Counted from the stretch's first letter, positions 30,276 through 56,700 are shown. The stretch is 64,000 nt of DNA from an uncultured Methanosarcinales archaeon (GCA_964594395.1 CAZQLW010000001.1:27579-91578); one strand, 5' to 3'. Notes: generated from the sequence alone by a model not told the origin. Program-made: numbers and translations.

Positions 30276-30893
30276 TTATTGTTGTACTTGATCTTTTTTT
30301 GAATTTTTATTGATATGTTTAAGTTCTTTAACATTTTCAACAAATTCTGGAATGACGTCCTTGAAAACTTTACCTACTGCCTTTAATTCTGTACCAACAT
30401 CTTTCATTTGAGTATCATAATCTTCCAACTTTCCAAGAACTCCCTGATGTAATATTTTGAAATCTTCTTTAAGTTTGCCTAGTTCACTTTCTAACTTTTT
30501 GTTTTTATCTTCAAATTCTTCTTTCCAAGCAACAATCTTTTTCACTTCAGCAATTAGTTCATCCCACTTTTCGTCAATCATTCCTTCAGTAATTTCTTCA
30601 ATTCGTTCATAGATGTTACCTTCCTGATCGGCTGTTGGGGCTGCAGGTTGTGGTTCTCCTTCTACTCCTGGTTGTGCTGGGGGCATAGCCATTCCTGGCT
30701 CGTTAGAAGTATTAACTTGTGATGGAGAAGCTGAAGCGTCTGCTTGAGCAATCGCTGCTTGAATTTGATCAGGGGCAATTTTTTCCTTTTTAAGTTCTTC
30801 AATGATTAAATTATCTGTTAAACCGCTTTTTCTTAATTCTAATACCTTGTTAACTGGAGGGCCAGCTTGTTGAAATAATGCCATTATTATCAC
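30276..30893 (-). CDS. coiled-coil protein with Pro/Ala/Gln-rich linker (hypothetical)
   Basis: 205 aa with low-complexity PAQPGVEGEPQPAAP linker and an acidic coiled-coil C-terminus. Confidence 0.4.
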   Translation of the reverse strand: MIIMALFQQAGPPVNKVLELRKSGLTDNLIIEELKKEKIAPDQIQAAIAQADASASPSQVNTSNEPGMAMPPAQPGVEGEPQPAAPTADQEGNIYERIEEITEGMIDEKWDELIAEVKKIVAWKEEFEDKNKKLESELGKLKEDFKILHQGVLGKLEDYDTQMKDVGTELKAVGKVFKDVIPEFVENVKELKHINKNSKKDQVQQ

Positions 30894-30920
30894 CTGCGTT
30901 TTTGTTTTTTTTATTTATTG

Positions 30921-31388
30921 TTAATTAAACGGAACATGCTTTTCGTTTTTTGGATCGTTTTTAATTTTACTTTTTTCACCTTTCTGAATATCTTCTTTAA
31001 TTAATAAAATTTTTGTTTCTACTGCTCGGTCTAAATCTTTCTGAGTTACAAAATTTAATGGACTCCACAAGTCTAAATATTTTTTTAAAGTTTCTACCTC
31101 TTCCATTCCTGCAGTTTTTTTCAACTCTTTAATGATGAGGTCCATTTTTTCTAAGGTTTTTTCATGTTTATGTTTAATTTCTAAAACATCTTCATTAATT
31201 GTTTTAACTTCTTTTGTTAAACTATTTGACCTTTTGATAAAGTCAGTTTTTAATGAATCTACTTCTCTTAAAAGGTTGTTAACTTTACTTTCTAACGCTT
31301 TTACCCAGATGTAAAGTTTAGAGTTGTCAAATCCAGACTTTTCTTCAACTTTTACCGGCTTAGGTTTCCCACCAAGATTTAAGTCCAT
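30921..31388 (-). CDS. coiled-coil protein (hypothetical)
   Basis: 155 aa, heptad-rich. Confidence 0.4.
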   Translation of the reverse strand: MDLNLGGKPKPVKVEEKSGFDNSKLYIWVKALESKVNNLLREVDSLKTDFIKRSNSLTKEVKTINEDVLEIKHKHEKTLEKMDLIIKELKKTAGMEEVETLKKYLDLWSPLNFVTQKDLDRAVETKILLIKEDIQKGEKSKIKNDPKNEKHVPFN

Positions 31389-31466
31389 ATTTACTTAAAT
31401 AAAGAATACAATATAATAAAGTTATGTGAGTACTTCTGAGGAGTATTTGTATTTTGAAGAAGATAA

Positions 31467-31790
31467 ATGTTTATTAACGGAATAAATTTAACCATTAAAA
31501 TGACAAAAGATTACTTAACTGTGATTATTGATTATACAGTAAATGGTCCATTTAAAATTAGTGGAGATTGCAATGATACGGGTAAAATTGAAGTTCTAGA
31601 AACCTTTCTGAGAAACCAAATTGGTGCCGGACCAGACCCCCGTAAACCAGATTATAAAGAAACTTATCAAATCTCTCTTCAATGGCATCCAAGTAATGAT
31701 AAAATTGTAGCTAGCTGTAACACTGGTAATTATGGATTAAGGGATGGAATTCTACAAGATGTTTTGAGAAAAACTTTAAGAGAGACATAA
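31467..31790 (+). CDS. hypothetical protein
   Basis: 107-aa ORF, no motif. Confidence 0.3.
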   Translation: MFINGINLTIKMTKDYLTVIIDYTVNGPFKISGDCNDTGKIEVLETFLRNQIGAGPDPRKPDYKETYQISLQWHPSNDKIVASCNTGNYGLRDGILQDVLRKTLRET

Positions 31791-31807
31791 TCAGAGCAAA
31801 TTACTGC

Positions 31808-31916
31808 CTATATTACATAAATGTCGCACACATTACAAAAATGTAACATCTCTTTAATCAAAACATTTATATACTTATATTACATAAATGTCAGATATGT
31901 TACAAAAATGTAGTAT
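31808..31916 (+). repeat. tandem direct duplication (about 42 nt x2, 66-nt period) of the promoter/5'-end region of the MNT gene
   Basis: CTATATTACATAAATGTCGCACACATTACAAAAATGTAACAT versus CTTATATTACATAAATGTCAGATATGTTACAAAAATGTAGTAT. The second copy contains the MNT start codon. The first copy opens a short 30-codon ORF. Confidence 0.5.
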
Positions 31917-32433
31917 TTTGCAAGTTGCAGGTGTTTTCTTTAATGAGCCGACTAAAGACCATTATTTGACAGAAATCAGCCAGAAAGCTAATCTGGCCCA
32001 TACTGCGGTTAAGAAACATCTTTCAGAACTTAAAAAATTATCTATCATAACAGAACATCATGAAAAAAAAGGCAAAAGAACTTTTCCGATTTACAAAGCA
32101 AACATTAACGATAAAGAATACAAAAAACAAAAGAGAACTTCTAATTTAATCCAGTTACAAGAATCGAAATTAATTGAGTTTCTAAAAGACAATTTAATGC
32201 CAAATTCAATTGTTCTTTTTGGAAGTTATCAAAAAGGAGAAGATATTGAAGATAGTGACATAGATTTATTTATTGAATGTAAAAAAGAAGAAATAAACCT
32301 CAATAAATTTAAAAAGTTACTAAACAGAAACATTCAATTGCATTTTAAAGATAATTTTAAGACATATCCTCAAGATTTAAAGAATAATATTATTAATGGT
32401 TTAATTTTAGTAGGCTATTTGGAGGGTTATTAA
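31888..32433 (+). CDS. minimal nucleotidyltransferase (MNT) with N-terminal wHTH
   Basis: Pol-beta-superfamily NTase motif LFGSYQKGEDIEDSDIDLFIE (GS...DxD) preceded by an HTH-like segment. Confidence 0.7.
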   Translation: MSDMLQKCSILQVAGVFFNEPTKDHYLTEISQKANLAHTAVKKHLSELKKLSIITEHHEKKGKRTFPIYKANINDKEYKKQKRTSNLIQLQESKLIEFLKDNLMPNSIVLFGSYQKGEDIEDSDIDLFIECKKEEINLNKFKKLLNRNIQLHFKDNFKTYPQDLKNNIINGLILVGYLEGY

Positions 32434-32834
32434 TGATTATTAACACGCAACCAGATAAAGCAAAAGCAAAGTCTTTAACTGAGATGGCTAAAATCACATT
32501 AGAACGTTTAAAAGAAACTAATAAAGAAAAATATCCCTCTAATACTTTAACAGATTATTATGATATTATTAGAAAATTAATGGAGGCTTTAAATGCCTTA
32601 GATGGTGTTAAAATAAAAGGGGAAGGGGCACATTTTCAAATAATTGATTATGTTTGTGATAAATACAAACTTCATATTTCTACTAAAGAGTTTATTCAAG
32701 ATTTAAGAGATTATAGGAACAGAATCTCTTACGAGGGATTTAACGTTAAAGATAGTTTTATTGAATCTAATGCCTCTAAGATAGAAAAGATTATTAGTTT
32801 GTTATTAAAATTAATAGATGAAAAAATAAATTAA
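32433..32834 (+). CDS. HEPN-domain protein, partner of MNT
   Basis: All-helical 133-aa ORF immediately downstream with TAATG overlap, in typical HEPN/MNT operon architecture. An R-rich segment (RDYRNRISYEG) sits at the expected position of the HEPN motif, but the conserved His is not evident. Confidence 0.5.
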   Translation: MIINTQPDKAKAKSLTEMAKITLERLKETNKEKYPSNTLTDYYDIIRKLMEALNALDGVKIKGEGAHFQIIDYVCDKYKLHISTKEFIQDLRDYRNRISYEGFNVKDSFIESNASKIEKIISLLLKLIDEKIN

Positions 32835-32849
32835 ACTTTTAAAATAAAA

Positions 32850-35147
32850 ATGATGGTGTTGACAGATAAAAAGTGTTTTGAGTACGAAACTTTCCATGAA
32901 GGAGAGAATAAGATCCTTAAGGTTTCTTTAGAAAAATGTACTTTCCCTCCATCGATTGAGTATAGTGAATTATGTATGGCCAAAATAATCGATGCCTTAT
33001 TAGAAGTTACGGGAGTAACAATCATTACACTTTCACAATTAAGAGAATATGAATACGATTATCCGCAGGTTAAACTTCTTCTTGAACTGGCTTTACTTTA
33101 CAAGAAAATCAATAAAGATGAACGGTACGCTTATTCTGCTTTAGTTACTGACCCTTTACATGAACGGTACATCCGAGGAAGTTATGCAGAATTTCAACGT
33201 ATAATTTCTAAAAGGTTAAAAGAAGATCCGTTCGCAGCTTTTGTTGAACTGAAACGTCTTGAACGGAGAGAAAAAACTAAACTTAACAATCTTATTGATC
33301 AACGGCACGCCACTTCTCAACAAAAGTTTGTTCAAATCATGGTTGACGTTATCCATACAATTGAACAGTTAACAATTATTAAGTTTTTAATGCCGCACAC
33401 TAAAGATTATAAGTTAGGGGAGAGAACAATTTATGGGATAGTTTTACACCCGACAACTAAGCCCGACTTTATGTATACCAAGCTAGTCATCGCTTACCCA
33501 GAAGGTAATTTGAAAGAAAGTTATAATTTCGGGTCTGATAGTGATAAGTGTGAAGTTAACATTTTTGATTTTAATGATAACATTAAAACCCTTTACCATC
33601 TTACTCCGCCAGAATTTAAGTATGACGAAGAAGTGTACGAACTTCTTGATGATGCTAAACGAATCATGTCTGAACATAAGCCAACACGTGAAGAATTTGT
33701 TGACCCTGAACGGATGAGAGAAGTTTTTTTTAACATTGGTAAGGATTTGCTTAACGATTTACTTGAACATAAAAAAATGAAACTTTCTGATGATAAAGTT
33801 GAAGATCTGGCCAGAGCATTATTACGTTACACTGTTGGATTTGGATTAATTGAACTTCTCCTTTCCGATCCGAAAGTTCAGGACGTTAACATTAACGCGC
33901 CTAACGGAGAATTGCCAATTTTTATTGTTCACCAGGATTATGGTGATTGTTACACTAACATTTATCCTACTCGGGAAGAAGTTGATAGTTGGGCAACAAA
34001 ACTGAGATTAATTAGTGGTAGACCTTTAGACGAAGCTAATCCCATCTTGGATACAGAACTTAAAGTTGAAGGGTTCAGTTCAAGGGTTTCAGCAATTACT
34101 GCACCGTTAAGTCCGAACGGTCTTGGATATTCGTTCAGGCGACATAGAGATCACCCTTGGACTTTTCCGTTATATATGCAACCAAAAATCAGGTACATGA
34201 ATGCACTTGGTGCTGGTTTGATAAATTTCCTGATTGATAATAATGCAACTATCCTTGTTGCTGGTACTCGTTCCTCTGGGAAAAGTAGTCTACTTGGCAG
34301 TTTTCTTGTAGAAATGTCCAGGCGGTCAAGGATTATTACAATTGAAGATACTTTTGAACTTCCACAAGAATCGTTACGTATTTTAGGCTATAACATTGAA
34401 TCTTTAAAAGTTGCTTCTGCTTTATCATCTCCGGGAAGTGAAGTTGATCCTTCTATAGGAATTAGAAGTACCCTGCGTTTAGGCGATTCAGCAATTTACG
34501 TGGGTGAAGTTAGAAGTACTGAAGCTATTGCCCTTTTTGAAGCAATGCGGGTCGGTGCTGCTGCAAACGTTGTTGCGGGAACGATTCATGCAGATTCGCC
34601 TTATGGGGTTTATGACCGGGTTGTTAACGATATTGGTGTTCCAAAAACCAGTTTTAAAGCGATTGACATTATTGTTGTTACTAATCCAGTAATTTCGGGA
34701 CTGAAAAAGTATAAACGAATCCTTAAAATTACTGAAGTTAGAAAACTCTGGGATGAAGATCCGTTGAAAGAGAACGCTTTCGTAGATTTAATGGTTTATG
34801 ATCCAAAAACTGACCAGTTGGAAATTACTGACGATTTGATTAACGGCAATTCTGACATCTTGAAACGGATGGCCGGTAAAGTTAAAGAGTTTGCTGGTGA
34901 TTGGGATGCTGTCTGGAATAATATCTTGTTAAGGGGCGACTGTAAAATGGCAGTGGTAGAGTTATTTAACGAGACTAAAGACGAATCTATTTTGGAAGCA
35001 GAGTTTGTTACTAAAGCTAACGATATGTTTCATTTAATTTCTAACCGGATTAGAGAACAAACAGGTAAAATGGATAATAAACGAATCCTGTTTGAGTATA
35101 AAGAATGGTTAAATAAGGAAGTTAAGAAGAAAGACGAGTTTGAGTGA
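32850..35147 (+). CDS. FlaI/VirB11/GspE-family secretion ATPase with long N-terminal extension
   Basis: Walker A VAGTRSSGKSSLLGS followed by IEDTFEL, Asp/His boxes, and FlaI-type N-terminal domain (DPKVQDVNINAPNG). Confidence 0.8.
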   Translation: MMVLTDKKCFEYETFHEGENKILKVSLEKCTFPPSIEYSELCMAKIIDALLEVTGVTIITLSQLREYEYDYPQVKLLLELALLYKKINKDERYAYSALVTDPLHERYIRGSYAEFQRIISKRLKEDPFAAFVELKRLERREKTKLNNLIDQRHATSQQKFVQIMVDVIHTIEQLTIIKFLMPHTKDYKLGERTIYGIVLHPTTKPDFMYTKLVIAYPEGNLKESYNFGSDSDKCEVNIFDFNDNIKTLYHLTPPEFKYDEEVYELLDDAKRIMSEHKPTREEFVDPERMREVFFNIGKDLLNDLLEHKKMKLSDDKVEDLARALLRYTVGFGLIELLLSDPKVQDVNINAPNGELPIFIVHQDYGDCYTNIYPTREEVDSWATKLRLISGRPLDEANPILDTELKVEGFSSRVSAITAPLSPNGLGYSFRRHRDHPWTFPLYMQPKIRYMNALGAGLINFLIDNNATILVAGTRSSGKSSLLGSFLVEMSRRSRIITIEDTFELPQESLRILGYNIESLKVASALSSPGSEVDPSIGIRSTLRLGDSAIYVGEVRSTEAIALFEAMRVGAAANVVAGTIHADSPYGVYDRVVNDIGVPKTSFKAIDIIVVTNPVISGLKKYKRILKITEVRKLWDEDPLKENAFVDLMVYDPKTDQLEITDDLINGNSDILKRMAGKVKEFAGDWDAVWNNILLRGDCKMAVVELFNETKDESILEAEFVTKANDMFHLISNRIREQTGKMDNKRILFEYKEWLNKEVKKKDEFE

Positions 35148-35223: not shown

Positions 35224-36816
35224 ATGGTAGATAAAGGTACTTGTTTAAGGTATTATAAACGTGAAGATGTCCAGAAAGCGATGGTTGAACATGCTCAAAA
35301 TAAAGAGCTTGGTGTTCGTTATGGCGATGGTTTTGGTAAACGGCCAGACGTTTTAATGTATCCTCAGGATGTTTTAGAGTTAGCTAAACAGGGGGTAACT
35401 TCTTTTCATGTTAGTGAAGAAGTTTGGGAAAATCCGTTAATTTTAAACAGTGATATGAACAGAAGAGAACAAGACGAGTTACGTATTGGTTGGGATTTAG
35501 TTCTTGACATTGATTGTCCTGATTGGGAAATATCTAAGTTAACTACCTATTTGTTTATCAAAGCTTTAAAAGAAAATGGGATTAAAGAAATTTCTTGCAA
35601 GTTTTCTGGAAATAAGGGGTTCCATATCGGTGTTCCGTTTGAAGTGTTTCCTAATGAAGTTGTTGGAAAAAAAACAAAAGACATTTTTCCTGAAGGACCA
35701 AAAAAAGTTGCTCAATATTTGTTAAACACTATCACTACTCGTTATGTTCAAGTAAAAGATAACAAAATATTTTTTGATAATGATTATTCTTTTAGTTTAT
35801 CTGAATTGAAAGAAAAGTTTGGTGAACAGCAATTTTTAATTAACCAGTGTGCTAGTTGTCAAAAAGAAATAAAAAAAATTAAAGAAGAAGTGATAGAATT
35901 TATTTGTCCTAAATGTGAGGAGAGGGTAGTTGCTGACCAGGAATTTCTTAAATGTAAAAAATGTAATATCTTGATGAACAAAATGGAACAAACAAAATCT
36001 TTATGTCCCTGCGGTTCAAATGAATACAATTCTATTTTTGACCCTTTATCTATTATTGAAGTTGATACTATTTTAATTTCATCACGTCATTTGTATCGGA
36101 TGCCATACTCGTTACACGAAAAATCTGGATTGGCAAGTTTACCAATAATTCCTAAACAAGTGATGGATTTTGAAAAAAGTATGGCTCACCCTGATAAAAT
36201 TGTAGTTTCTGGAATTAAGTTTCTTGATAGGAACGTTTTGAAAGAATCTGCAAGGATGTTGTTAGTTAACGCTCTTGATTTTGAAGTCAAGATTGAAGAG
36301 GATCGAGATTTTGGTAAAGAAGTTAAGTTTGAAGAACTAAAAATTGAAAGTCCGATTAATGAAGAGTTTTTTCCACCATGTATTAAAAAAGTTCTTGATT
36401 CTGGCTTGGAAGATGGTAAGAAACGGGCAATTTTCATTTTAACAAATTTTCTTGGCAAGATTGGTTGGAACAAGAAAGAGATTGAAAATTATCTTTTAAA
36501 ATGGAACAAAGAAAAGAATTCTGGGAATTTACGTGACAATTATATTGTTAGTCAGATGAAAAGTTTTACTGCTGGTGCAAAATTACCGCCGAACTGTGAT
36601 AATGAAGCTTATTATACGGGAATTGGTATCTGTTTACCTGATACTTTATGTAAAAAAATTAAAAATCCAGTAAATTATACCATTATCAGATGGAAAAGAC
36701 ATTTAAGGGATAGAGAAGAAGATAATCGTCAAAGCAGTAAAAGTAAAACTAAAGAAAATAAAAGTGAAGATAATAAGAATTCTGAAAAAAATAAAAAAGA
36801 AGAAAAATTTGAGTAA
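35224..36816 (+). CDS. priS: DNA primase small subunit PriS fused to a PriL-CTD-like FeS domain
   Basis: PriS catalytic motifs DLVLDIDCPD and SGNKGFHIGVPF, and a Zn-ribbon (CxxC...CxxC). The C-terminal FFPPCIKKVL...PNC...ICLPDTLC resembles the PriL C-terminal 4Fe-4S domain. Confidence 0.75.
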   Translation: MVDKGTCLRYYKREDVQKAMVEHAQNKELGVRYGDGFGKRPDVLMYPQDVLELAKQGVTSFHVSEEVWENPLILNSDMNRREQDELRIGWDLVLDIDCPDWEISKLTTYLFIKALKENGIKEISCKFSGNKGFHIGVPFEVFPNEVVGKKTKDIFPEGPKKVAQYLLNTITTRYVQVKDNKIFFDNDYSFSLSELKEKFGEQQFLINQCASCQKEIKKIKEEVIEFICPKCEERVVADQEFLKCKKCNILMNKMEQTKSLCPCGSNEYNSIFDPLSIIEVDTILISSRHLYRMPYSLHEKSGLASLPIIPKQVMDFEKSMAHPDKIVVSGIKFLDRNVLKESARMLLVNALDFEVKIEEDRDFGKEVKFEELKIESPINEEFFPPCIKKVLDSGLEDGKKRAIFILTNFLGKIGWNKKEIENYLLKWNKEKNSGNLRDNYIVSQMKSFTAGAKLPPNCDNEAYYTGIGICLPDTLCKKIKNPVNYTIIRWKRHLRDREEDNRQSSKSKTKENKSEDNKNSEKNKKEEKFE

Positions 36817-38672: not shown

Positions 38673-39590
38673 ATGAAACAGAAAATAATAATTGATACTG
38701 ACCCCGGACATGATGATGCATTAGCAATCATGTTAGCAGTAAAATCAAACTTGTTTAATATTGAAGCAATAACTACCGTAGCAGGAAACTCTACCATTGA
38801 AAATACTACTAGGAATGCTAGATATGTCATGAAACTTTTGAATAAAGAAGATATTCCTGTTTATTCAGGTGCAGATAAACCTTTGAAAAGAGATTTAGTT
38901 CAAGCAGTAGTGCACGGCAAGTCCGGATTAGACGGAATTGATCCTATAAACGAAGCCAAAATAACTGGTAATGCAGTAGAAAAGATAATTGAAATCGTTA
39001 AAAATAATCCTAATGAAATTACGTTAGTGACGTTAGGACCGTTAACTAACGTTTCTCAAGCAATAATTGAAGCACCAGAAGTGATGAAACTTGTTAAAGA
39101 GATTGTTATTATGGGTGGTGCAATAAAAGTTCCAGGAAACAAAAATAGAGTAGCAGAATTTAATATCTTTGTGGACCCTGATGCTGCAGACATTATTTTT
39201 AAATTTTCGATTAAGAAAACTCTTGTCCCTTTAGATGCTTGTAACCATGTTAAATTATTTTTGGAAGATTTTGAAAAAATTGAAAATGTAACTTTGCGTG
39301 AACCAATTATTAAGATGATAAAGCCTTACATTGACAATATTGAAAAAGATGTTGGTGTTAAAGCTGCATTAATGTATGACCCTTTAACAGTTTATGCATT
39401 AATTAATCCCGGTGCTTGTAAAAAGAAGGGTTACAATCTTGTTGTTGAAACTAAAGGTGAGCATACTTTTGGGATGACTGTAGCAGAATTAAGGAAAGTA
39501 AATGATAGTTTTCCAAACATTACAGTAATAGAAATGATTAGTGAAAAAGAATTTAAAAAAGATTTTGTTAAATATTTATCCGCCGCTTAG
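38673..39590 (+). CDS. inosine-uridine-preferring nucleoside hydrolase
   Basis: N-terminal IIIDTDPGHDDALAI matches the DxDxxxDD signature of IU-NH. Confidence 0.85.
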   Translation: MKQKIIIDTDPGHDDALAIMLAVKSNLFNIEAITTVAGNSTIENTTRNARYVMKLLNKEDIPVYSGADKPLKRDLVQAVVHGKSGLDGIDPINEAKITGNAVEKIIEIVKNNPNEITLVTLGPLTNVSQAIIEAPEVMKLVKEIVIMGGAIKVPGNKNRVAEFNIFVDPDAADIIFKFSIKKTLVPLDACNHVKLFLEDFEKIENVTLREPIIKMIKPYIDNIEKDVGVKAALMYDPLTVYALINPGACKKKGYNLVVETKGEHTFGMTVAELRKVNDSFPNITVIEMISEKEFKKDFVKYLSAA

Positions 39591-40133
39591 GAATGCTACA
39601 GCAAAAATGGCGATCAGGAAAATTATTACTAAACCCATCACTTTTGGATGGAATAATGTTGCTCTGGCACTGCCCATGAAGTCTTTCTGAGCAACTCCTC
39701 CTTCATCAGTAATGGTAACATTACCATCTCCGTCAAAAGCGGCATCTGTAAATGATTGGCCTAAAACTGTACCTAAAGATGCAACCAGAAGAACTATACC
39801 TACACCGATAAGTGTCCATTGTAATGTTTTATCGCCAAGTGCACCCCTGATATCTGATTCTTGGGCACCAAAAATTTGGAAAATCAGTAAGATCAATATA
39901 AAGAAAATAATAATTACTGTAAACCAAGGGACCATGAAATTTAGGACGCTAACTAATGTATCAGATAATAAGACCATAAATGCTATTACTACTGCAACGA
40001 TAGCATTAATTTGTAATGATTCACCTAACGCTTTAGTTTTTTGTAACACTGCAAAGACGAGTGCAAAAACTAATAATACTGGAAAAATAACGTCAAACGA
40101 TTTCAATAAACTTAAATCTAATACAGTCGCCAT
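39576..40133 (-). CDS. 4-TM membrane protein, paralog 1 of a tandem triplet
   Basis: Shares the FLLVFxIVFAVLQKTxxLG N-terminal helix with the two genes downstream. Confidence 0.45.
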   Translation of the reverse strand: MATVLDLSLLKSFDVIFPVLLVFALVFAVLQKTKALGESLQINAIVAVVIAFMVLLSDTLVSVLNFMVPWFTVIIIFFILILLIFQIFGAQESDIRGALGDKTLQWTLIGVGIVLLVASLGTVLGQSFTDAAFDGDGNVTITDEGGVAQKDFMGSARATLFHPKVMGLVIIFLIAIFAVAFLSGG

Positions 40134-40136
40134 TAT

Positions 40137-40718
40137 TTATTTTTTCTCCACTAGTTTACCTAGTCCTTTTCCTAAATCTTTTAATGCATCAATACCTTTC
40201 CCTTCTCCTGGTTCTTTAGTAATGAACCAGACAATGACTCCAAAGACAAGGATGATAATCATTAATTCAGTAACCTCGGCCGACCACCAATAAAATATGT
40301 TAGATGGACCTACCCAAAGGTTTAATGCTGAGCCGAAAATGTAAACTACAAAAACTATTGCTATTAAAGCAATGATTGGTGATGCGGATGCTGCAAAATC
40401 AGCTCCAAAAATACCCATTAATAATAATAACATGATTGCTGCTACTGCAACTAAAGAAATGCTTGGTAAAGTTTCGTTAAGAACCATTACGGGATCATAA
40501 CCGAGCGGATAATAACCAATCATGTGAGGGACAACAAACATTAATCCTAGCACAAGTGCTACCACCACATTAAAATTCTTTTTTCCATCACCTAAAATAT
40601 TTGTTTTTTGTAGAACTGCAAAAACAATTACGAATACTAACAGAAATGGTAATAAAAAATCCATCACCCCATAAGTTTGAAAATAACCTGCCAGATTAGC
40701 AAAACTTGTACCTACCAT
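40137..40718 (-). CDS. 4-TM membrane protein, paralog 2
   Basis: DFLLPFLLVFVIVFAVLQKTNILG, paralogous to the neighbours. Confidence 0.45.
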   Translation of the reverse strand: MVGTSFANLAGYFQTYGVMDFLLPFLLVFVIVFAVLQKTNILGDGKKNFNVVVALVLGLMFVVPHMIGYYPLGYDPVMVLNETLPSISLVAVAAIMLLLLMGIFGADFAASASPIIALIAIVFVVYIFGSALNLWVGPSNIFYWWSAEVTELMIIILVFGVIVWFITKEPGEGKGIDALKDLGKGLGKLVEKK

Positions 40719-40768
40719 TTTAAATTAACCTCCAATTGAAAATTTTAATTTTATCCATTTTAATTTTT

Positions 40769-41362
40769 TTATTCTTCTTTCTTTTTTTCTTTTTTTGTGT
40801 TTGGATCCTTAATAATGTAAAACATAAATCCACTAATAACTAAAAGGAAAATGATTGATGTTGCCCATTGAGCATCCCAATTTTGAAATACTGAAAAGAT
40901 AATTTCTAAAACTGAATAAGATTCTCCGGGATTAGTTTCTATTTTAATAGCGTTCATAAAAATTGCGACAACACCGATGAACATAAAAATGATGAATGCT
41001 TTTGTCCATCCAGGAATTTTATCTATTCCTACAAATTCTTGATCACTGAAAAACACTCCTACTAACATTAAGAAACAAATTGCCAATATTAATAGTAAAA
41101 CTACGTTTGCCATTACTTCGTTAATAACTGATACTAGTTGTGTTGAAGCAATAACAAGGAACGACATGATAAACGCAACCATAGAATTAAGGTTTTTCTT
41201 GGTTAACTCTCTCCCATCAATTTTTTCTACCCCTAAAATTTTAGTCTTTTCAAGGATAGCAAAAACAATTGTAAATACTAATAAGAAAGGTAAGATTATG
41301 TCATAGACTCCTAAATCACCTAAAAATTCTATCACTCCACGAAATCCGCTTGCTTCTACCAT
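40769..41362 (-). CDS. 4-TM membrane protein, paralog 3
   Basis: DIILPFLLVFTIVFAILEKTKILG, paralogous to the neighbours. Confidence 0.45.
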   Translation of the reverse strand: MVEASGFRGVIEFLGDLGVYDIILPFLLVFTIVFAILEKTKILGVEKIDGRELTKKNLNSMVAFIMSFLVIASTQLVSVINEVMANVVLLLILAICFLMLVGVFFSDQEFVGIDKIPGWTKAFIIFMFIGVVAIFMNAIKIETNPGESYSVLEIIFSVFQNWDAQWATSIIFLLVISGFMFYIIKDPNTKKEKKKEE

Positions 41363-41512
41363 CTAATTTATCCTCTTTTTATTGTATTAAATTAAAAGAT
41401 TATAGTATATAAATGTTTCTAAACGTTTCTTCTTTAACTGTTTTTTTTGAACCTAAAAAAACGAAGTCTTTAAATATTAGTTTATTTTGTCTAAATTTCG
41501 AGGTGGAAAAAG

Positions 41513-42943
41513 TTGAGGTGTAAATTATTTATTTTAATATTATTGATGTTTTCATTACTTTCTATTACTGTTTTAGCTGCAGATACGGAGGTAACAGTAA
41601 CTCCATTAGAGAATCATATTACTACGGCTGAACAAGCTACATTTAAAGTTACAGTTAAAAGTACAGGTAACGAGTTTCAAAGTTATACTGTTTATGCTCT
41701 GGAATTAGGTTGGATTATTGATCCACTTCCCCAGGATAGAACTTTTGATTTAAACCCGGGAGAATCAAAAACTACTATTGTTACAGTTAAACCTACTGAA
41801 GACTTTAAGCCTGGTGCTTATGCTCCAACGTTATATGTTGATAGTTATCGGGGAAATAATTATAAAACTTATACTAAAAGTTTAAAATTGTACCTTAGTC
41901 CAGAAGGACAAATTGAATATTTTCCTTCTTTAACAGTTACAGTTGATATGGACGAAAAAATTAACCCCCAAGAACCAGTTCCTATCAAACTTTTCATTAA
42001 TAGTCGAAATCCTTTAAATTTAACCAATTTAAAATTAAAAATTCAAAGTGATATGTCTGAATTTCAAAAAGATGTTATTATAGATATTCCACCGTTAGAA
42101 AAGAAAACCGTAGAATTCACTATTGTTCCTAGCGAATTTCAGCAACCAAAAGATTACACACTTTTCTTTGTCTTTGAACATAAAGGTCAGACAGTTAAAG
42201 TTGTTGAGAAAAAAATTGAAGTAGTTTCATTATTACCTGAATTTTCAGTTAATATTGTTGAAGATATAATCTTTTTTAAACAATTTAAACAAGTTTCAAT
42301 AACTAATCCTGGTAATGTTTTGAATAAGCAAGAAGTTAAAATCCCCGTTTCTTTTTGGTCGTCTTTGTTTATTAAAAGTCCTGGTAGTGAGTATAAAACT
42401 ATTGAGGGTAGTAAATTTTTGGTCTGGAAACTTTCTCTAACTCCTAACGAAACTATTAGTGTAAATTATGTAGTGAATTATAGGATATTATTTTATTTGT
42501 TACTGGTTATTCTCATTTTTGGCAGTTTTTATTGGTATGTTCAAACTCCGATTGTTGCTAAGAAGTCAGCAATTACTACTAAAAGTGATGAAGAGGGTGC
42601 TTTATCAGAGATTAAAGTTACTTTAGAAGTTAATAATAAGTCTGGTAAACCACTTAAAGGCGTAAAAATTACCGATCTTGTTCCCGGAATTGCTAATGTT
42701 GAAAAAAGTTTAGAATTGGGAACGTTAAAACCTCAAGAAGTGAGACATGTTAAACAGGGTACAAAAGTAATTTGGTCTTTAGCAGAGATTGATTCACATG
42801 AACATCGTTTAATTACGTACAAAGTTAAAGCTAAACTTAACATTGTGGGAACTTTTAGTTTACCACGAGCTATTGTTGAGTTTGAGAAAGGTAAAGGAAA
42901 GAAAGGTAAATCCTATTCAAATATATTTCGTTTGAGTAGTTAA
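41513..42943 (+). CDS. secreted/surface protein with signal peptide and internal TM (hypothetical; TTG start in the supplied ORF)
   Basis: Signal peptide ending AADTEV with a GAGGTGG Shine-Dalgarno-like sequence upstream. Beta-rich repetitive body. A TM around residue 330 splits two extracellular-looking parts. Confidence 0.5.
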   Translation: MRCKLFILILLMFSLLSITVLAADTEVTVTPLENHITTAEQATFKVTVKSTGNEFQSYTVYALELGWIIDPLPQDRTFDLNPGESKTTIVTVKPTEDFKPGAYAPTLYVDSYRGNNYKTYTKSLKLYLSPEGQIEYFPSLTVTVDMDEKINPQEPVPIKLFINSRNPLNLTNLKLKIQSDMSEFQKDVIIDIPPLEKKTVEFTIVPSEFQQPKDYTLFFVFEHKGQTVKVVEKKIEVVSLLPEFSVNIVEDIIFFKQFKQVSITNPGNVLNKQEVKIPVSFWSSLFIKSPGSEYKTIEGSKFLVWKLSLTPNETISVNYVVNYRILFYLLLVILIFGSFYWYVQTPIVAKKSAITTKSDEEGALSEIKVTLEVNNKSGKPLKGVKITDLVPGIANVEKSLELGTLKPQEVRHVKQGTKVIWSLAEIDSHEHRLITYKVKAKLNIVGTFSLPRAIVEFEKGKGKKGKSYSNIFRLSS

Positions 42944-43045
42944 GTGATATACTCACTGGACTATAAAAACATTTATATAGAAGTGGCAGTCTTTATAGAG
43001 TTAAAAAAGAACAAGTTATAATCAAATATAAGAGAGGGTGTGAAA

Positions 43046-43438
43046 ATGAAAGATTTTTTATTACAATTAAAGGATAAATTTGCAAAACCAATTGAGGACG
43101 ATGAAATAATTGAGGAACAATCTGAGGAATATCTTGAGTTAGGTTCATCTCCAACTAAAGAAGAACAGGCTAAGATTATTGTTCGTCCGTTCGTAATTGA
43201 AGAGTTTGAAGATATTAAAGAAATTTTGGACGTTCTTAGAGAAGGTTCAACAATTGCTTTAGTTAACATTCGACCTTTAAAAGAAAAGGACTTAATTGAG
43301 TTAAAAAGGGCGATTTCTAAATTACGAAAAACTTGTGAAGCTATTGATGGTGACATTGCCGGTTTTGGTGAAGATTATGTTGTAGCAGTACCTTACTTTG
43401 CCCAAATTTTTCGGAACAAGCCAGTTAATATTGAATAA
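43046..43438 (+). CDS. sepF: cell division protein SepF (FtsZ-anchoring)
   Basis: IIVRPFVIEEFEDIKEILDVLREGSTIALVNIRPL...GDIAGFGEDYVVAVP matches the SepF domain. The ATG at 43046 is preferred over the GTG at 43040. Confidence 0.7.
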   Translation: MKDFLLQLKDKFAKPIEDDEIIEEQSEEYLELGSSPTKEEQAKIIVRPFVIEEFEDIKEILDVLREGSTIALVNIRPLKEKDLIELKRAISKLRKTCEAIDGDIAGFGEDYVVAVPYFAQIFRNKPVNIE

Positions 43439-43789: not shown

Positions 43790-44248
43790 TTAACAATTTC
43801 TTATATTTTCAACAATTAACGCCTTTTCAACACAAATCTGTTCTTTATCATAAAGTTTAATTTTTGGCGTTATTTTTACCTGCCTAATCGCTCCGCCAGA
43901 AGCGAAATTGTAAGCAACACTACCCATATAAGTTCCTGCTTTACCGATCTTAGCGTTGTTCAATTCTGTTGATTCAGCTTTTAATGTTCCGATAACGTTA
44001 ATAATTAAACCTTCAATATTAATGTTCACTCCATTTTCTATTGTAAACATAATTTGTTGCGTTGCAACGTTATAACATGCAACTTTTTGTCCGCCAATTT
44101 CAGATAAATGTAACCCGATTTCTATCGGGCATTGTGCTTCTAATTCGACTTGAGCTTGTCCAAAGTTCATGATTACTATTCCTAGAGCTACTGCGAAAGA
44201 AATTAAAAGTAATGTTGCTACTAATGGTGCTATCCCTCTTTTGTTCAT
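43790..44248 (-). CDS. archaeal type IV pilin-like protein (class III signal peptide)
   Basis: N-terminus MNKRG|IAPLVATLLLISFAVALGIVIM shows the basic-Gly cleavage context followed by a hydrophobic helix, typical of archaeal prepilins. Confidence 0.55.
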   Translation of the reverse strand: MNKRGIAPLVATLLLISFAVALGIVIMNFGQAQVELEAQCPIEIGLHLSEIGGQKVACYNVATQQIMFTIENGVNINIEGLIINVIGTLKAESTELNNAKIGKAGTYMGSVAYNFASGGAIRQVKITPKIKLYDKEQICVEKALIVENIRNC

Positions 44249-44296
44249 AATTTAATTATGAAAGAGAAAGGAATATATAAGTTTTTGGATGGTAGC

Positions 44297-44875
44297 TTAC
44301 CAATTATTATCTAGAACTCTTTGCCAAACTTCTTCAGTTGATTTTGTCCATTCAACGTTTAACCTTTCAAATTCAATTGGTGACCAAATTACTAATTGTG
44401 GGGCTGAATAACTGTCATCATATTCAAAAAAAGGAACTTTGGATTCCCAATACTTTTTATAAGCTCGATTCAGGGATCCTGCTATTGGTCCTTTTCGAAG
44501 TTCTCTTTCAACATGGGCCCTATCAACAACATAAGCTTTATCTTTTGGCTCTAATTCAAAACTTAGAAGTATAGTTTCTTCTTCTCTACAGATATCGTGC
44601 ATTAATAATTTCCATAAATGGGGGAATTCTGAATTTTCTAACCATGAATTTGGTTCTGATTCAAGTAAACTTTCAACGACTTTATTATATGCTTCATTTG
44701 GAAATCCTTTTAAATTTGGATGAACAAACATTTTACTTGGAATCAATCCTCGGAAATCATTAAAAGGAGTCCTGAAATTTCTATCTACTCCATTCGTATG
44801 CATAGATTGATATGCTTTTTGATTAGTGTAATGGTATCCAATCATTTTATTTTTGTTATTCATTTTTATCTTCAT
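44297..44875 (-). CDS. hypothetical protein (no recognised domain), first of two overlapping genes
   Basis: 192-aa ORF rich in W/Y/H. ATGA overlap with the upstream gene. Confidence 0.4.
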   Translation of the reverse strand: MKIKMNNKNKMIGYHYTNQKAYQSMHTNGVDRNFRTPFNDFRGLIPSKMFVHPNLKGFPNEAYNKVVESLLESEPNSWLENSEFPHLWKLLMHDICREEETILLSFELEPKDKAYVVDRAHVERELRKGPIAGSLNRAYKKYWESKVPFFEYDDSYSAPQLVIWSPIEFERLNVEWTKSTEEVWQRVLDNNW

Positions 44876-45480
44876 TCTTTAACAATGTCATCTAATGATT
44901 GTTTATCTGCTTCTTGTTCTGGGGTTTTTGATCCAAAGAATCTTCTGAATCCATCCATTGAAAATTTTCCTGCAGGTGCTAACCACCAACTATTTTTAAA
45001 AAATTCCCATCCTGCTTTACCCACAGTTTCAATTTCAAAATCAACTTCTGTGTCTAAAGCTGCTCTGATACCTAATGCACCTGCAATTTGTAACCAATAT
45101 AATTGAGTTTGAACTAAGTTATGCGCGACTAATTCTGCAGTATAACGTTTAGGAAGAGAACTTTCAGGAGTAACATTTCCTTTTTTATAAGTCCAATCTC
45201 GAACTACAGTAAAAATGGGTGAAGTTACAGAATGTACAGCTAAACTTAATCCTCTTGCCATTAATGAAGTTCCTGGAAGCATCCCCACTTGAGAATCCAT
45301 ATACATTCCTAACACAACTTTATTAGCGGCTAATCCTGTCCAATCACCAACAAACTTGTAAGTCTTGTTATCTTTCATCCGTTCGTATCGTTTAGTTCCC
45401 ACAATATCTTCCATAGTAATATCATATGTAAGAATTTCATATGCACGTGAATTACGAACTTTATCTGGAATTAGCTTCAT
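44872..45480 (-). CDS. hypothetical protein (no recognised domain)
   Basis: 202-aa ORF co-oriented and translationally coupled with 44297-44875 and followed by the pilin gene. Confidence 0.4.
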   Translation of the reverse strand: MKLIPDKVRNSRAYEILTYDITMEDIVGTKRYERMKDNKTYKFVGDWTGLAANKVVLGMYMDSQVGMLPGTSLMARGLSLAVHSVTSPIFTVVRDWTYKKGNVTPESSLPKRYTAELVAHNLVQTQLYWLQIAGALGIRAALDTEVDFEIETVGKAGWEFFKNSWWLAPAGKFSMDGFRRFFGSKTPEQEADKQSLDDIVKE

Positions 45481-53737: not shown

Positions 53738-56700
53738 ATGAAAAAAATCATTGTTGTAAGTTTAATTGTGTTCTGCTTGTTGTTAAGCAATATTGCTTTG
53801 GCTGAAGAAGTAGCTGAAGAAAGTTCTTGTACTGGATTCTGGGGAAAAGTAAGTTGTGTGCTTTTCGGAGACCCGGTTAAGAAAGATCAAGCTAAACAAG
53901 CTCTTGCTGGTCAAGCAGGAAGAATGAGAGATGTTCAAACTCGTGATTCTGCTCCTGAAGTTGAAGAGCTTGAAGATGTAAAAGAAGTACCTGATGCAAA
54001 AATAATAACTTTACCTGAAAAAGAAGAAATTAAATGTGTCGATACTGACGGTGGAAGAAATTTTGAAGTTAAAGGTCGGATAAAAGGCGCAGATCCAAAA
54101 AATCCTGATCAAGAAATGAATGAAGAAGACAGATGTTCTTCTGATACCAGAATTATTGAATTTGAATGTAAAGATGATTCTTTAATTACTTGGAACGGTT
54201 ACGATTGTCCTAATGATGGTGTTTGTCGTGATGGTGCTTGTGTTGAACGTGAAGTTGAAATTCTTCCAGCAACTAATGAAGAAGAAAAAGAAATGCTTCC
54301 TGCAACTAATGATGAAGAAAGTGTTCGAGAAGTAGAAGAAAAAGTTGTTGTTGAAGAGAAAAAAGTAATCTGTAGAGATACTGATGGTGGTTATAATGTT
54401 GACAAAAAAGGGACTATTACTGGCCTGAACATTGATAATAATGAAGTGACTTATACCGATTTTTGCCGAACTTCTCAAAGTGAAACAAGGCTTGATTCCT
54501 GTAGCGGTGCTCGTTGTAGAATTAAAGAATGGGGTTGTACAAACAATATTGTTGGTTCAAACGTTTTATCATGTAAATATGGTTGTGGGGATGGTGCTTG
54601 TTTAGCTGCTAGTAGAAGTACTGGTAGTGCTGTTGAAGAACCAGTTGTTGAACCTATTGAAGAAAAAACGTTAGACTGTACAGATTCTGACCGGGGCCAA
54701 AATATTTATTTGAAAGGTGAAACTTTTAAGCCTGGTGAAGGAACTTTAAAAAATACAAAGGGATTATATTTTGTTGATACTGCACGCGGAAGAACTTGGT
54801 CTGATGCTTGTCAATTAAAAACTGAAACTGGTTATTCAAGCATTGATGAGGGTAGGTGTAGTGCCGGTGTTGATTGTTATGTAATAGAATTTTCTTGTAA
54901 CGCTGACAGTATTAGAAAAGCTTGTCCTAACGGTTGTGTTGATGGTGCTTGTTTAAAAACTTCTCGAACTGTTGTTGTTGAGAAAGAAGCTGAAGAAGTT
55001 GAAACCGTTTTTGAAGCGAAAGAAACTAGATGTGCTGACGGTAAAGATAATGATAATGATAACAAGATTGACTGTTTTGATGCTGATTGTTCTCCTGCTG
55101 CTGGAGAAATTTATCAAGCCGGTGATGATTGTACTTTAACTAATGATGTACCTACTTGCTGTTTATATCATAGTAGAAAAGCAGGAACTTTTGTTGAATC
55201 TTTCGATACTGAATCAATGTGTCTTGGTGCTGGAAGATTCCCAGTAATTAATGAACGAGTTTGTGAAAGAATGCTTGAACAGAAAGGATATGTTTACATT
55301 GAAGATGAGGAATTAGAATTAGAAGTTGTTGAAGTAGAAGTGTCTGAAACCAGTGGTAGTAATTATGAAAAGTATAAAGAAGTTTTATCTTCTTGTGAAA
55401 GAGAAGGAAATATTTTTGATCACGTAACCGATACTTGTTTAGAATCTTGTCCGCGAGGAACAAAACGTGTTGCATGGGGTCCTGGAAAAGCACTTTTTAG
55501 TTGTCTCCCTGAAGAATCTCCTGGCTGTACTGATACCGATGAAGTAGAAAGAGAGTATCAAAAATATTTCCATGTTAATTATGAAGTTAAAGGCACAACT
55601 ACTGGTATTAATGTAAAAACTGGTGAATTTGGCAGTACGACCGATTTCTGTTCTGATGAAAATACCATTAGAGAATTCTTTTGTTCATATCACGGCCCTG
55701 ATAAATATTTAACCAGTACTGGTCATGGTCATACCTGTCCAAATGGTGGTGTTTGTGAGGATGGTGCTTGTCTTCCTGGAACTGAAGTTGAAGATTCTGA
55801 TTTACCTCCTGGATTAGAAGAATTACCTCCTGGATTGGCTAAAAAAGATAAAACTCCTCCGGGCTGGGAAAAAGGCGAAAAATCTGGTTGGGAAGAAGTT
55901 ACTGAAGTAACTGAAGAAGCAGCAGAACCTTACGCTGATGACTGTAACGGTTGTGAAAGTAATGGTAAATGTTTACCTTTTGGAACTCGGAAAGTTGTTG
56001 ACGAAGTTGCTAGTTTTTGTGATTTAGAAGGGAGATGGGCTAGCCAAGCTTCTTTAAGTGCATCATGTCAAAACGATTACGAATGTCAAACTAACGAGTG
56101 TAGTAACGGTCAGTGTGAAGATCTTGCTAAGAAGTTAGAAGAAACTGAGAACGCTTTGAATAAGTTGTTAGATTTTGTAAAGAAATTCTTTGGCGTTGAA
56201 GAAGAAACTTTTGTCATTGAAGAAGATTTCGGGATTATTGAGTATGGCGCAACTAAAGAAGATTCCACTGGTGATTTTAAGATGTTGAATAATCCTAGTG
56301 TTGGTTATGAAGGGTATTACAATAATCTTTACGTACTTGTTCAGGATCATGAAAAAGATATTAACGAAAAAGTTTTTATTGGACAACTTTTAGAAGACTT
56401 GGATGAACTCGAACTTCAAGATATGAACGAGTTTGGTCAACATTTCTATTGTACTGATGATAATTATGATCAGTATGTATGTACTTGGTTCAGTGGAGAC
56501 ATTTTTGTAGCTCTAATCATCAATAATTTTGAAGAATTTATTGATTTGGAAGGCATGGAACAATCTTTTGAAGATATGTTATTAGCTTACTTGGAGAAAT
56601 TCCCTTCTTCAATAACTTTAAACATTGAAGATTTCAGTGATGTTGAAAAGGAAGAGATTATGCCTGAAGTAGAAGTTGAGGAAGAAGAGGAAGTGATGAG

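Follow-up and report, generated by a model that had tools for sequence, protein, structure and literature searches.

The question raised by this locus is what three small, related membrane proteins encoded side by side, next to a divergently transcribed surface protein, might build, and whether they are a tandemly amplified and variable module, as an earlier note on this DNA had proposed, or an older and more constant system.

Results

Three paralogous genes form one operon

Within the window (the whole 64-kb stretch of DNA that was analysed), three consecutive ORFs were found on the minus strand, namely gene A (40769..41362, 197 aa), gene B (40137..40718, 193 aa) and gene C (39576..40133, 185 aa), which are the first, second and third genes of the operon. 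Their paralogy, which had been read from the sequence before, is significant in BLASTP (A-B 2e-19, A-C 4e-12, B-C 1e-10; ~30% identity), and no fourth copy was found within the 64 kb. The 3' end of gene C overlaps a convergent nucleoside hydrolase gene by 15 bp.

The N-terminal helix motif that the earlier note ascribed to all three proteins is real and is the best-conserved stretch of the family, but copy C departs from the motif as it was written (DVIFPVLLVF...KALG). D20, P24, L27, V28, F29, A34 and K38 are invariant in 23 family sequences, and P24 is invariant across 146 family members. The loops vary from paralogue to paralogue; in A, loop 1 is long and, like the C-terminal tail, rich in K, and C has an acidic loop of ~30-40 aa ahead of TM5 that is predicted to be extracellular.

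Five TM helices per paralogue, and not the four described earlier, were predicted by hydropathy (A, B and C) and by AlphaFold2 (AF2; B). The AF2 model of B, which is of only moderate confidence (pLDDT 74.5, pTM 0.50), contains helices at residues 3-15, 18-39, 47-67, 76-104, 106-131, 147-167 and 175-191, that is, an N-terminal amphipathic helix, five TM helices (18-39, 47-67, 76-104, 106-131 and 147-167) and a C-terminal amphipathic helix. Search of this model against PDB folds gave no significant match. The conserved polar residues D20, N50, N81 and K38-T39-K40 lie within or at the ends of TM helices, and the positive-inside rule favours an N-out/C-in orientation for A, B and C.

The trio is ancient and strictly conserved

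Conservation was analyzed in 80 non-redundant loci from Woesearchaeota/Nanoarchaeia species, and copy number was counted where the flank on each side reached 1.5 kb or more, which left 61 loci. Of these, 60 carry three copies, no more and no fewer, with order and strand unchanged. The gene order across loci is always A-B-C, with A first, and the median intergenic gaps are 36 and 13 bp. In an NJ tree of 225 members, the genes at positions 1, 2 and 3 form exclusive clades (75/75/75), and the paralogues within a genome are not closer to each other than to the genes of other genomes. Because each position has its own exclusive clade, the triplication is older than all sampled species.

The median orthologue identity to the window copies is 57% for A, 62% for B and 48% for C, which indicates purifying selection (in the same comparison, the neighbouring genes described below gave 74% for the ATPase, 72% for SepF, 50% for the divergent 476-aa protein and 50-51% for the coiled-coil proteins). 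B is the most conserved paralogue, with >600 homologues and orthologues that are 64-75% identical; orthologues of A are 60-70% identical across Woesearchaeota, and C is the least conserved. Relatives of the family are encoded by 513 or more species-level genomes, every one of which bears the label Woesearchaeota, Nanoarchaeia or a similar one; they fall into 3017 clusters at 50% identity, nearly all of about 180-210 aa.

In this way, the trio is an ancient, strictly conserved three-gene operon of an unnamed protein family and not a recent, fast-diverging amplification. The copy-number variation among related genomes that tandem amplification would lead one to look for is absent from all but one of the 61 loci, the fixed copies, fixed order and exclusive clades contradict a variable module, and the proteins are hardly rapidly diverging, with identities below that of the ATPase and about equal to or above that of the 476-aa protein.

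No known family accounts for the trio

The three proteins have no significant match in Pfam, NCBIfam, PHROG, PDB sequences or PDB folds. A known housekeeping membrane family, which the earlier note had considered as the contrary case, was not found, as no curated family or solved structure matched. The search against PHROG gave nothing below E = 0.03 and no hit annotated as holin, and no relatives were obtained from a collection of 2.9 million viral contigs. Phage_holin_2 gave weak matches in 4 of 146 members (best 0.038), which is consistent with noise. The holin-like identity suggested before was thus rejected, given the lack of PHROG holin matches and of viral relatives and the housekeeping genes that make up the chromosomal context of the trio in the window. 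Pilins were also ruled out, as A, B and C are polytopic and have no class III signal.

The divergent gene is a subclade-specific neighbour

Gene A is separated from the divergent gene by an AT-rich spacer of 150 bp (41363..41512), in which a TATA-like element (tatataaat) was read from the sequence at about 41406-41415. The ribosome-binding sites of both genes also fall in the spacer, with GAGG about 9 nt ahead of the ATG of gene A and GAGGTGG 6 nt ahead of the TTG start at 41513 of the divergent gene. The spacer probably carries promoters, judging from the TATA-like elements.

The divergent gene (41513..42943, plus strand) is an ORF with a TTG start for a 476-aa membrane protein, hereafter Ig476, whose start in public gene calls is placed 11 codons later (465 aa). 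An N-terminal hydrophobic helix was found, and the internal TM helix noticed earlier was recovered at about residues 324-343. The AF2 model (pLDDT 84.4) has domains at 25-128, 140-237, 245-322 and 347-474 with the TM helix at 324-343, and the predicted layout is a signal/anchor helix, three extracellular beta-sandwich domains, a TM helix and a fourth, DUF11-like beta-sandwich on the opposite face of the membrane. Only sub-threshold Pfam matches (DUF11, NPCBM_assoc and CARDB) and, by Foldseek, generic tandem Ig-like folds were obtained. Downstream of Ig476 lies the gene for SepF, the cell-division FtsZ anchor (43040..43438, plus strand; Pfam SepF 1.1e-10, above cutoff). Only 28 of 64 loci carry Ig476 upstream of gene A, and SepF is upstream of the trio in 25 of 60 loci and a neighbour only in the same subclade as Ig476. 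Ig476 is a subclade-specific neighbour rather than a conserved partner of the trio, and the earlier reading, which built on the adjacency of the two, is not supported in this respect.

Coiled-coil proteins and a secretion ATPase are the constant neighbours

The most constant neighbour of the trio is the protein cc203 (205 aa in the window, 30276..30893, minus strand), which has a small helical domain at its N-terminus, followed by a low-complexity linker and a coiled coil. Its gene occurs in 66 of 73 loci (90%), where it directly follows C in convergent orientation, a median of 60 bp away. A soluble coiled-coil protein without TM helices (cc145; 155 aa in the window, 30921..31388, minus strand) also occurs downstream of gene C, in 60 of 68 loci (88%). 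No significant family match was found for cc203 and no family match in profile searches for cc145, and no FlaC/D/E or FlaX model matched either protein.

The third constant neighbour, a secretion ATPase of 765 aa (32850..35147, plus strand), belongs to the type IV filament superfamily (FlaI/TadA/afGspE-like) and is encoded on the downstream side of C, at a distance of 1.1-6.7 kb, in 49 of 58 loci (84%). It matches Pfam T2SSE (1.3e-13), the NCBIfam models FlaI (3e-35) and TadA (2e-32), both under the equivalog cutoffs, and in the PDB 2OAP (3e-32) as well as CpaF and FlaI; a Walker A motif (GTRSSGKS) was read from the sequence, and the N-terminal extension is ~240 aa. Apart from the platform-like protein described below, other flanking families are much rarer (maximum 32 of 81 loci). 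In the window, the ATPase is 4.4 kb from the trio, its block is inverted, four inserted housekeeping genes lie between, and cc145 is displaced along with it. This inversion and separation show that tight linkage to the trio is dispensable. Furthermore, the trio is convergent with, and not co-transcribed with, the coiled-coil genes or the ATPase, so the link between them is one of adjacency only.

In 22 of 50 loci, the ATPase gene is followed by a gene for a platform-like polytopic protein of ~735 aa, which shows weak T2SSF matches in 6 of 24 members (best E 3.5e-4) and no PDB profile match, has no sequence or profile similarity to the trio and is absent from the 64-kb window. No conserved pilins were found near the trio; pilin-like N-termini occur in 11 of 80 loci at inconsistent positions, and one archaeal pilin is present in the window (43790-44248).

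Discussion

Possible roles of the trio

A, B and C most likely assemble into a hetero-oligomeric complex, and the set, with one copy of each type, belongs to the core gene content of Woesearchaeales/Nanoarchaeia (DPANN archaea). The gene neighbourhood suggests that the trio is functionally coupled to the ATPase machine, and our leading, still tentative reading is that the complex serves a type-IV-filament-like machine, specific to this lineage, as an accessory part. The three genes would be co-transcribed from one operon, and their products, three fixed and non-interchangeable subunit types, each with five predicted TM helices, the N-terminus outside and a K-rich C-terminus inside, would build one membrane complex. 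Embedded in the membrane, this complex may act as an accessory module, for example a scaffold, stator or conduit, in a machine that would also comprise the FlaI/TadA-type ATPase, the pair of cytoplasmic coiled-coil proteins and the divergent FlaJ/TadC-like platform protein that many of the genomes encode. The conserved Asp-x3-Pro and Lys-Thr-Lys, which lie at the outer and the inner end of TM1, respectively, could then form a shared subunit interface or a site contacting ions or substrates.

A stand-alone heteromeric channel or transporter for ions or small solutes, which would serve a metabolically dependent DPANN cell in a housekeeping capacity and have the ATPase nearby through inherited synteny without coupling, is possible and somewhat more doubtful. 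The near-core distribution, the strong conservation, three fixed paralogous 5-TM subunits and the polar residues in or at the ends of the TM helices would all suit such a function, as would the convergent arrangement and the position of the window trio amid housekeeping genes, apart from the ATPase. However, no Pfam or NCBIfam transporter family and no solved transporter fold was matched, genes for a substrate-binding protein or an ABC ATPase are not found in association with the trio, and cc203, cc145 and the ATPase accompany it (84-90% of loci) far more regularly than other flanking genes do. It is improbable that the trio is a remote, truncated relative of the AT3 (acyltransferase 3, PF01757) membrane domain and/or of DUF2070 (PF09843), acting in surface glycan or lipid modification or export, perhaps on the Ig-like neighbour. 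Among 146 diverse members, sub-threshold Pfam matches at E <= 1 recur for Acyl_transf_3 (31 members, best E 4.8e-8) and for DUF2070 (33 members, best E 6.2e-6), about 22% of members in each case. They keep a constant register that spans all five TM helices, residues about 22-175 being aligned with 128-259 of 326 in AT3 and with 38-171 of 561 in DUF2070, where the matches always fall at positions of about 38-180. AT3 enzymes have a ~10-TM domain with conserved catalytic His and Arg in TM1 and the TM3-4 region. The matched region covers only half of this domain and leaves out the TM1 motifs with the catalytic His and Arg, neither residue is invariant anywhere in the family, and there is no fold support; moreover, inspected members reach 21-28 bits against a gathering threshold of 31 for AT3 and 10-15 bits against 30 for DUF2070, and hydrophobic TM profiles often yield such borderline matches.

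With its five TM helices and the invariant Asp of TM1, the family also recalls the class III signal (prepilin) peptidases of the PibD/FlaK type, and a highly diverged enzyme among A, B and C would supply the peptidase that goes undetected near the ATPase. Some nanoarchaea have no recognisable prepilin peptidase (PMC4858521). Where the window carries precomputed Pfam annotation, no Peptidase_A24 gene was found, and there is a very weak profile match to FlaK (3S0X, E = 1.6). That match is not significant, though, and the trio shows no Peptidase_A24 Pfam match, no second invariant Asp and no GxGD motif. PibD and FlaK cleave prepilins on the cytoplasmic side, whereas the invariant Asp is predicted on the outer face, and we regard this identity as very unlikely. 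Scarcely more than nominal probability, the lowest of all, is left for the view that the trio, working together with the divergent secreted protein, is either a set of holin-like proteins or a recently amplified, fast-diverging and variable module of the cell surface or of host interaction. The 150-bp spacer common to the trio and the multi-Ig-domain protein and the loops that differ among paralogues agree with it, but the paralogues are ancient orthologous groups of 48-62% identity with fixed copy number and order, Ig476 adjoins the trio in a minority of loci, and neither a PHROG holin match nor a viral relative was found.

Comparison with known systems

Archaeal type IV filament (TFF/T4P) loci of the clade 2 / system 2 type combine an ATPase that has an extended N-terminus with just one platform gene (Makarova et al., 2016, PMC4858521; bioRxiv 10.64898/2026.04.22.720090). 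The locus of the trio is similar, as the neighbouring ATPase is nearest to A. fulgidus GspE (2OAP), FlaI and CpaF/TadA, carries the ~240-aa extension and is followed in many relatives by the single ~735-aa polytopic protein with weak T2SSF similarity. The differences are that no described TFF component matches the A/B/C family, that conserved pilin genes are missing from the locus, and that the coiled-coil proteins have no FlaC/D/E or FlaX match. In Thermoproteales, a precedent is offered by subclade 4D, which comprises two-component T4P-like loci without pilins, with an ATPase and a 4-5-TM protein (arCOG05557/arCOG13890) that resembles no other membrane protein and was proposed to be a diverged, short TadC (PMC4858521). 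Compared by description only, both systems place a TFF-family ATPase beside small TM proteins without other likeness; the trio differs in having three paralogous subunits instead of one, alongside a separate platform-like protein, and in belonging to a different phylum. Heteromeric small paralogous membrane subunits such as the FliP/Q/R export gate and the split platform TadB/TadC offer an analogy in concept only, namely fixed-order operon subunits that form one complex attached to a secretion ATPase system; the best Foldseek match to FliQ has E = 1.0, and no sequence similarity was found.

Beyond an accessory role, a bolder reading, which we consider unlikely but a little less so than the acyltransferase relationship, is that the trio is the membrane core of an undescribed Woesearchaeales-specific envelope machine, a hetero-oligomeric conduit or stator gated or driven by the FlaI/TadA-type ATPase via the coiled-coil proteins, for uptake, exchange or host contact in an ultra-small symbiont. 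If this were true, the machine would take up or exchange DNA, lipids or metabolites, or form a host-contact structure, and its architecture, placed inside the type IV filament superfamily or next to it, would be new. The trio is a useful lead into the dark matter of these genomes.

Results

Three minus-strand ORFs are present in the window exactly where the earlier note had placed them: in operon order, gene A (40769-41362, 197 aa), gene B (40137-40718, 193 aa) and gene C (39576-40133, 185 aa), hereafter the trio. The gap between A and B is 50 bp and that between B and C is 3 bp; no fourth copy of the family was detected within the 64-kb window. The proposed paralogy was borne out by BLASTP (A-B, 2e-19; A-C, 4e-12; B-C, 1e-10; identity about 30%), and the N-terminal helix common to the three proteins is real and constitutes the family signature. 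In a balanced 23-sequence alignment, D20, P24, L27, V28, F29, A34 and K38 (B numbering) are invariant; among 146 diverse members P24 is invariant and G17, L23, F25, L27, F29, A34, K38, G43 and N50 are nearly so. The four-TM topology has to be revised, as hydropathy and the AlphaFold2 model of B (pLDDT 74.5, pTM 0.50) give five TM helices plus an N-terminal amphipathic helix; B also carries a C-terminal amphipathic helix. Lys and Arg residues are concentrated in two places, loop 1 and the tail at the C-terminus, and this favours an N-out/C-in orientation.

Two further observations concern the ORFs themselves. A lone 365-aa A-like/B-like fusion with a truncated B part (P0242), from a single 5.3-kb metagenome contig, looks like read-through of the A stop codon into B. 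If real, it would conflict with the N-out/C-in five-TM topology for both halves; being one truncated, read-through-like case, it was not used as a topology constraint. On the plus strand, a 193-aa ORF (39712-40293) lies antisense to genes C and B, and similar antisense ORFs recur across related loci because the sense genes beneath them are conserved; this is a shadow ORF and no gene.

An exhaustive profile search covering 1.84 billion representatives returned 3017 clusters at E <= 1e-3 and 1662 at E <= 1e-10, with a length of 170-215 aa for nearly all among the 150 matches listed. Relatives occur in at least 513 genomes in a scan with one genome per species. For B, more than 600 homologues were found (orthologues 64-75% identical), and orthologues of A are 60-70% identical. 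Every one of the best 80 loci belongs to a Woesearchaeota, Nanoarchaeia or Nanobdellota MAG. Many Woesearchaeota-type locus records (L005, L007, L010-L012 and others) are titled 'uncultured Methanosarcinales archaeon', and one 'Euryarchaeota archaeon SM23-78'; these taxonomic titles look wrong.

Of the 61 loci with sufficient flanking sequence, 60 have exactly three adjacent same-strand copies in the order A-like, B-like, C-like, with median gaps of 36 and 13 bp. A neighbour-joining tree built on 75 loci (225 members) placed all first genes in one clade, all second genes in another and all third genes in a third, with no intruders (75/75/75); the triplication is therefore older than the separation of all the species sampled here, and all three copies have persisted since then. 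Median orthologue identity to the window copies is 57% for A, 62% for B and 48% for C, as against 74% for the neighbouring secretion ATPase, 72% for SepF, 50% for Ig476 (a 476-aa protein encoded divergently from gene A) and about 50% for two coiled-coil proteins. The description of the trio as tandemly amplified, rapidly diverging and variable is rejected on these identities and on the fixed, ancient copies; for annotation, the trio is no variable or mobile element.

To describe the neighbourhood, all ORFs of the loci were clustered and counts were taken over loci with enough flank. Directly downstream of the trio and convergent with it is a soluble coiled-coil protein of about 203 aa (cc203, 66/73 loci), followed by a second coiled-coil protein of about 145 aa (cc145, 60/68 loci). 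A secretion ATPase of about 765 aa lies 1.1-6.7 kb downstream of the trio, divergent from the coiled-coil pair (49/58 loci); its nearest matches are A. fulgidus GspE (2OAP, 3e-32), FlaI and CpaF/TadA, and its N-terminus is extended by about 240 aa. The ATPase is followed in 22 of 50 loci by a polytopic protein of about 735 aa with two helical cytoplasmic domains and about nine hydrophobic segments. Upstream of the trio, only the subclade nearest the window has Ig476 (28/64 loci) and SepF (25/60 loci), and all remaining flanking families are still rarer.

The 735-aa family, of which 6 of 24 members weakly match T2SSF (best 3.5e-4), is probably a strongly diverged FlaJ/TadC-type platform missed by Pfam. 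An example is L011:17244-19445, and 23 other loci also have it directly after the ATPase; no platform-like gene is found within the 64-kb window. The coiled-coil pair, which about 90% of related loci conserve in divergent orientation to the ATPase, is represented in the window by two soluble proteins of 205 and 155 aa (30276-31388, minus strand) with no family match. Neither is detectably related to the other (hhalign 9% probability), and their Pfam, NCBIfam and PDB matches are only generic coiled coils, so that an identity with archaellum FlaC/D/E/X was rejected. The pair may serve the ATPase machine as a scaffold in the cytoplasm.

In the window, the cc203-cc145-ATPase block (30276-35147) is inverted, and genes for a primase, a HAD protein, an M20 peptidase and a nucleoside hydrolase stand between it and gene C. 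The block itself has acquired a 181-aa nucleotidyltransferase (NTP_transf_2/Polbeta) with an overlapping 133-aa partner (31888-32834, plus strand), placed between cc145 and the ATPase. This pair, with HEPN putative for the partner, recalls the MNT-HEPN module, for which Makarova et al. (2019, PMC6393860) report an unusual degree of conservation in DPANN genomes, among housekeeping genes. The primase-like protein (35224-36816, 530 aa) has only a faint DNA_primase_S match and several Cys-rich (zinc-ribbon-like) segments, and could be a DPANN primase of fused or unusual form.

Ig476 (41513-42943, plus strand) starts with TTG behind a GAGGTGG ribosome-binding site and is, as previously described, divergent from the trio, across a 150-bp spacer. 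Its roughly 270 detected homologues are all about 475 aa long, 50-59% identical and confined to Woesearchaeota or Nanoarchaeota. The AlphaFold2 model (pLDDT 84.4) comprises a signal/anchor helix, beta-sandwiches at 25-128, 140-237 and 245-322, a TM helix at 324-343 and a fourth, DUF11-like beta-sandwich at 347-474, which, if the model is right, must lie on the opposite membrane side from the first three. Such predicted domains on both sides of one internal TM are unusual for an envelope protein. Foldseek returned only generic tandem Ig-like proteins (hydin, integrin alpha, alpha-2-macroglobulin domains); no specific family was assigned beyond a generic tandem Ig-like membrane protein. Ig476 is plausibly an envelope protein, though as a neighbour of the trio it is lineage-specific rather than a constant partner.

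The window is AT-rich (GC about 31%), and the best matches of its proteins carry Candidatus Woesearchaeota or Nanoarchaeia labels, which places the source among the DPANN archaea. Housekeeping genes include those for LysRS, IleRS, endonuclease V, primase, ribosomal protein S6e and SepF, and an archaeal pilin is also encoded; ARAGORN, run on the full window (1-64000), detected no tRNA gene. The pilin (152 aa, class III signal peptide, arch_flag_Nterm 5.5e-5) is last in a three-gene minus-strand run (43790-45480) after a 192-aa and a 202-aa protein, both of unknown family and the longer one with a weak AlaE-like match, a run found in the window's closest relatives only. Large ORFs on record without a Pfam family encode 1187 aa (53738-57301), 521 aa (58637-60202), 600 aa (61116-62918) and the adjacent 487 and 489 aa (6310-9220), which are not paralogues of each other (BLASTP E = 1.5).

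The earlier note had found no named domain. Scanning the trio and every neighbour against Pfam and NCBIfam brought no significant match for A, B or C. The cluster-member names of ten representatives read 'hypothetical protein', Woesearchaeota, and nothing else, the label that databases currently give the family. No curated family describing these proteins and no paper on them was found, and they are absent from T4P surveys and archaeal 'dark matter' papers. PDB sequence-profile matches to a poxvirus membrane protein (the best, E 0.036) and FlaK (E 1.6) are noise. The sole recurrent signal, below threshold, is to Acyl_transf_3 (AT3; 21-28 bits in the scores inspected versus 31) in 31 of 146 diverse members (best 4.8e-8) and DUF2070 in 33 of 146 (best 6.2e-6). 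The register is constant and covers all five helices, at AT3 profile positions 128-259 of 326.

Discussion

The trio comprises three ancient paralogues, individually conserved, in fixed order and tight same-strand spacing, with one of each per locus. On this pattern, A, B and C probably form a conserved hetero-oligomeric membrane complex. They would be co-translated subunits, each type with its own place, and the conserved TM1 would serve as a common structural or functional element, with Asp-x3-Pro at its predicted outer end and Lys-Thr-Lys at the inner. The complex might act with the ATPase of the type IV filament superfamily (TFF), the coiled-coil proteins and the platform, e.g. as a membrane scaffold, stator or conduit. 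We class the locus as TFF-type with a novel three-paralogue membrane module, the TFF link being one of neighbourhood only; the full statement, complex plus link, is put forward tentatively, as somewhat short of probable. Thermoproteales TFF ATPases pair with otherwise unrelated 4-5-TM proteins (PMC4858521), and 'system 2' loci contain unnamed membrane proteins (bioRxiv 2026.04.22.720090); for the trio, both are analogies only.

The main alternative, which we consider rather unlikely, is that the trio is an independent channel or transporter placed by inherited synteny. The window's own rearrangement of the ATPase block and the convergent orientation of trio and block speak for it, whereas the block is conserved beside the trio far more strongly than any other neighbours. 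A truncated AT3/DUF2070-like membrane domain is improbable: the resemblance is a lead at the profile level rather than an assignment, and the matched half of AT3 is without the AT3 catalytic residues, while the trio family has no invariant His or Arg. A diverged prepilin peptidase is highly improbable, given a single invariant Asp, on the predicted outer face, and no GxGD motif. Scarcely credible is the variable or holin-like module of the earlier note, a holin or phage origin having been rejected. Two other identities were discarded: a split or diverged platform (FlaJ/TadC), since these loci also encode a separate platform-like protein and the two profiles align with an hhalign probability of 0.2%, and pilins, since the trio proteins are polytopic and without a class III signal, and pilin-like ORFs near the trio are not conserved across loci.

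Woesearchaeota, like related DPANN archaea, are abundant, ultra-small and uncultured, and probably host-dependent, attaching to partners and importing what the cells do not make themselves. As an uncharacterised lineage-wide membrane-protein family the trio is ordinary DPANN 'dark matter'; what stands out is how strictly its three subunits are organised and that it is associated with a pilus-type ATPase block. Nearly all genomes sampled from the lineage keep it, with its order fixed and that ATPase beside it, which makes it a concrete candidate component of envelope machinery; that it is the core of a new envelope machine of ultra-small archaea is distinctly unlikely. If the ATPase link is true, the trio would be a new kind of membrane module for type IV filament systems; if false, it would still be among the better-defined lineage-specific core membrane complexes, e.g. 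a channel candidate.
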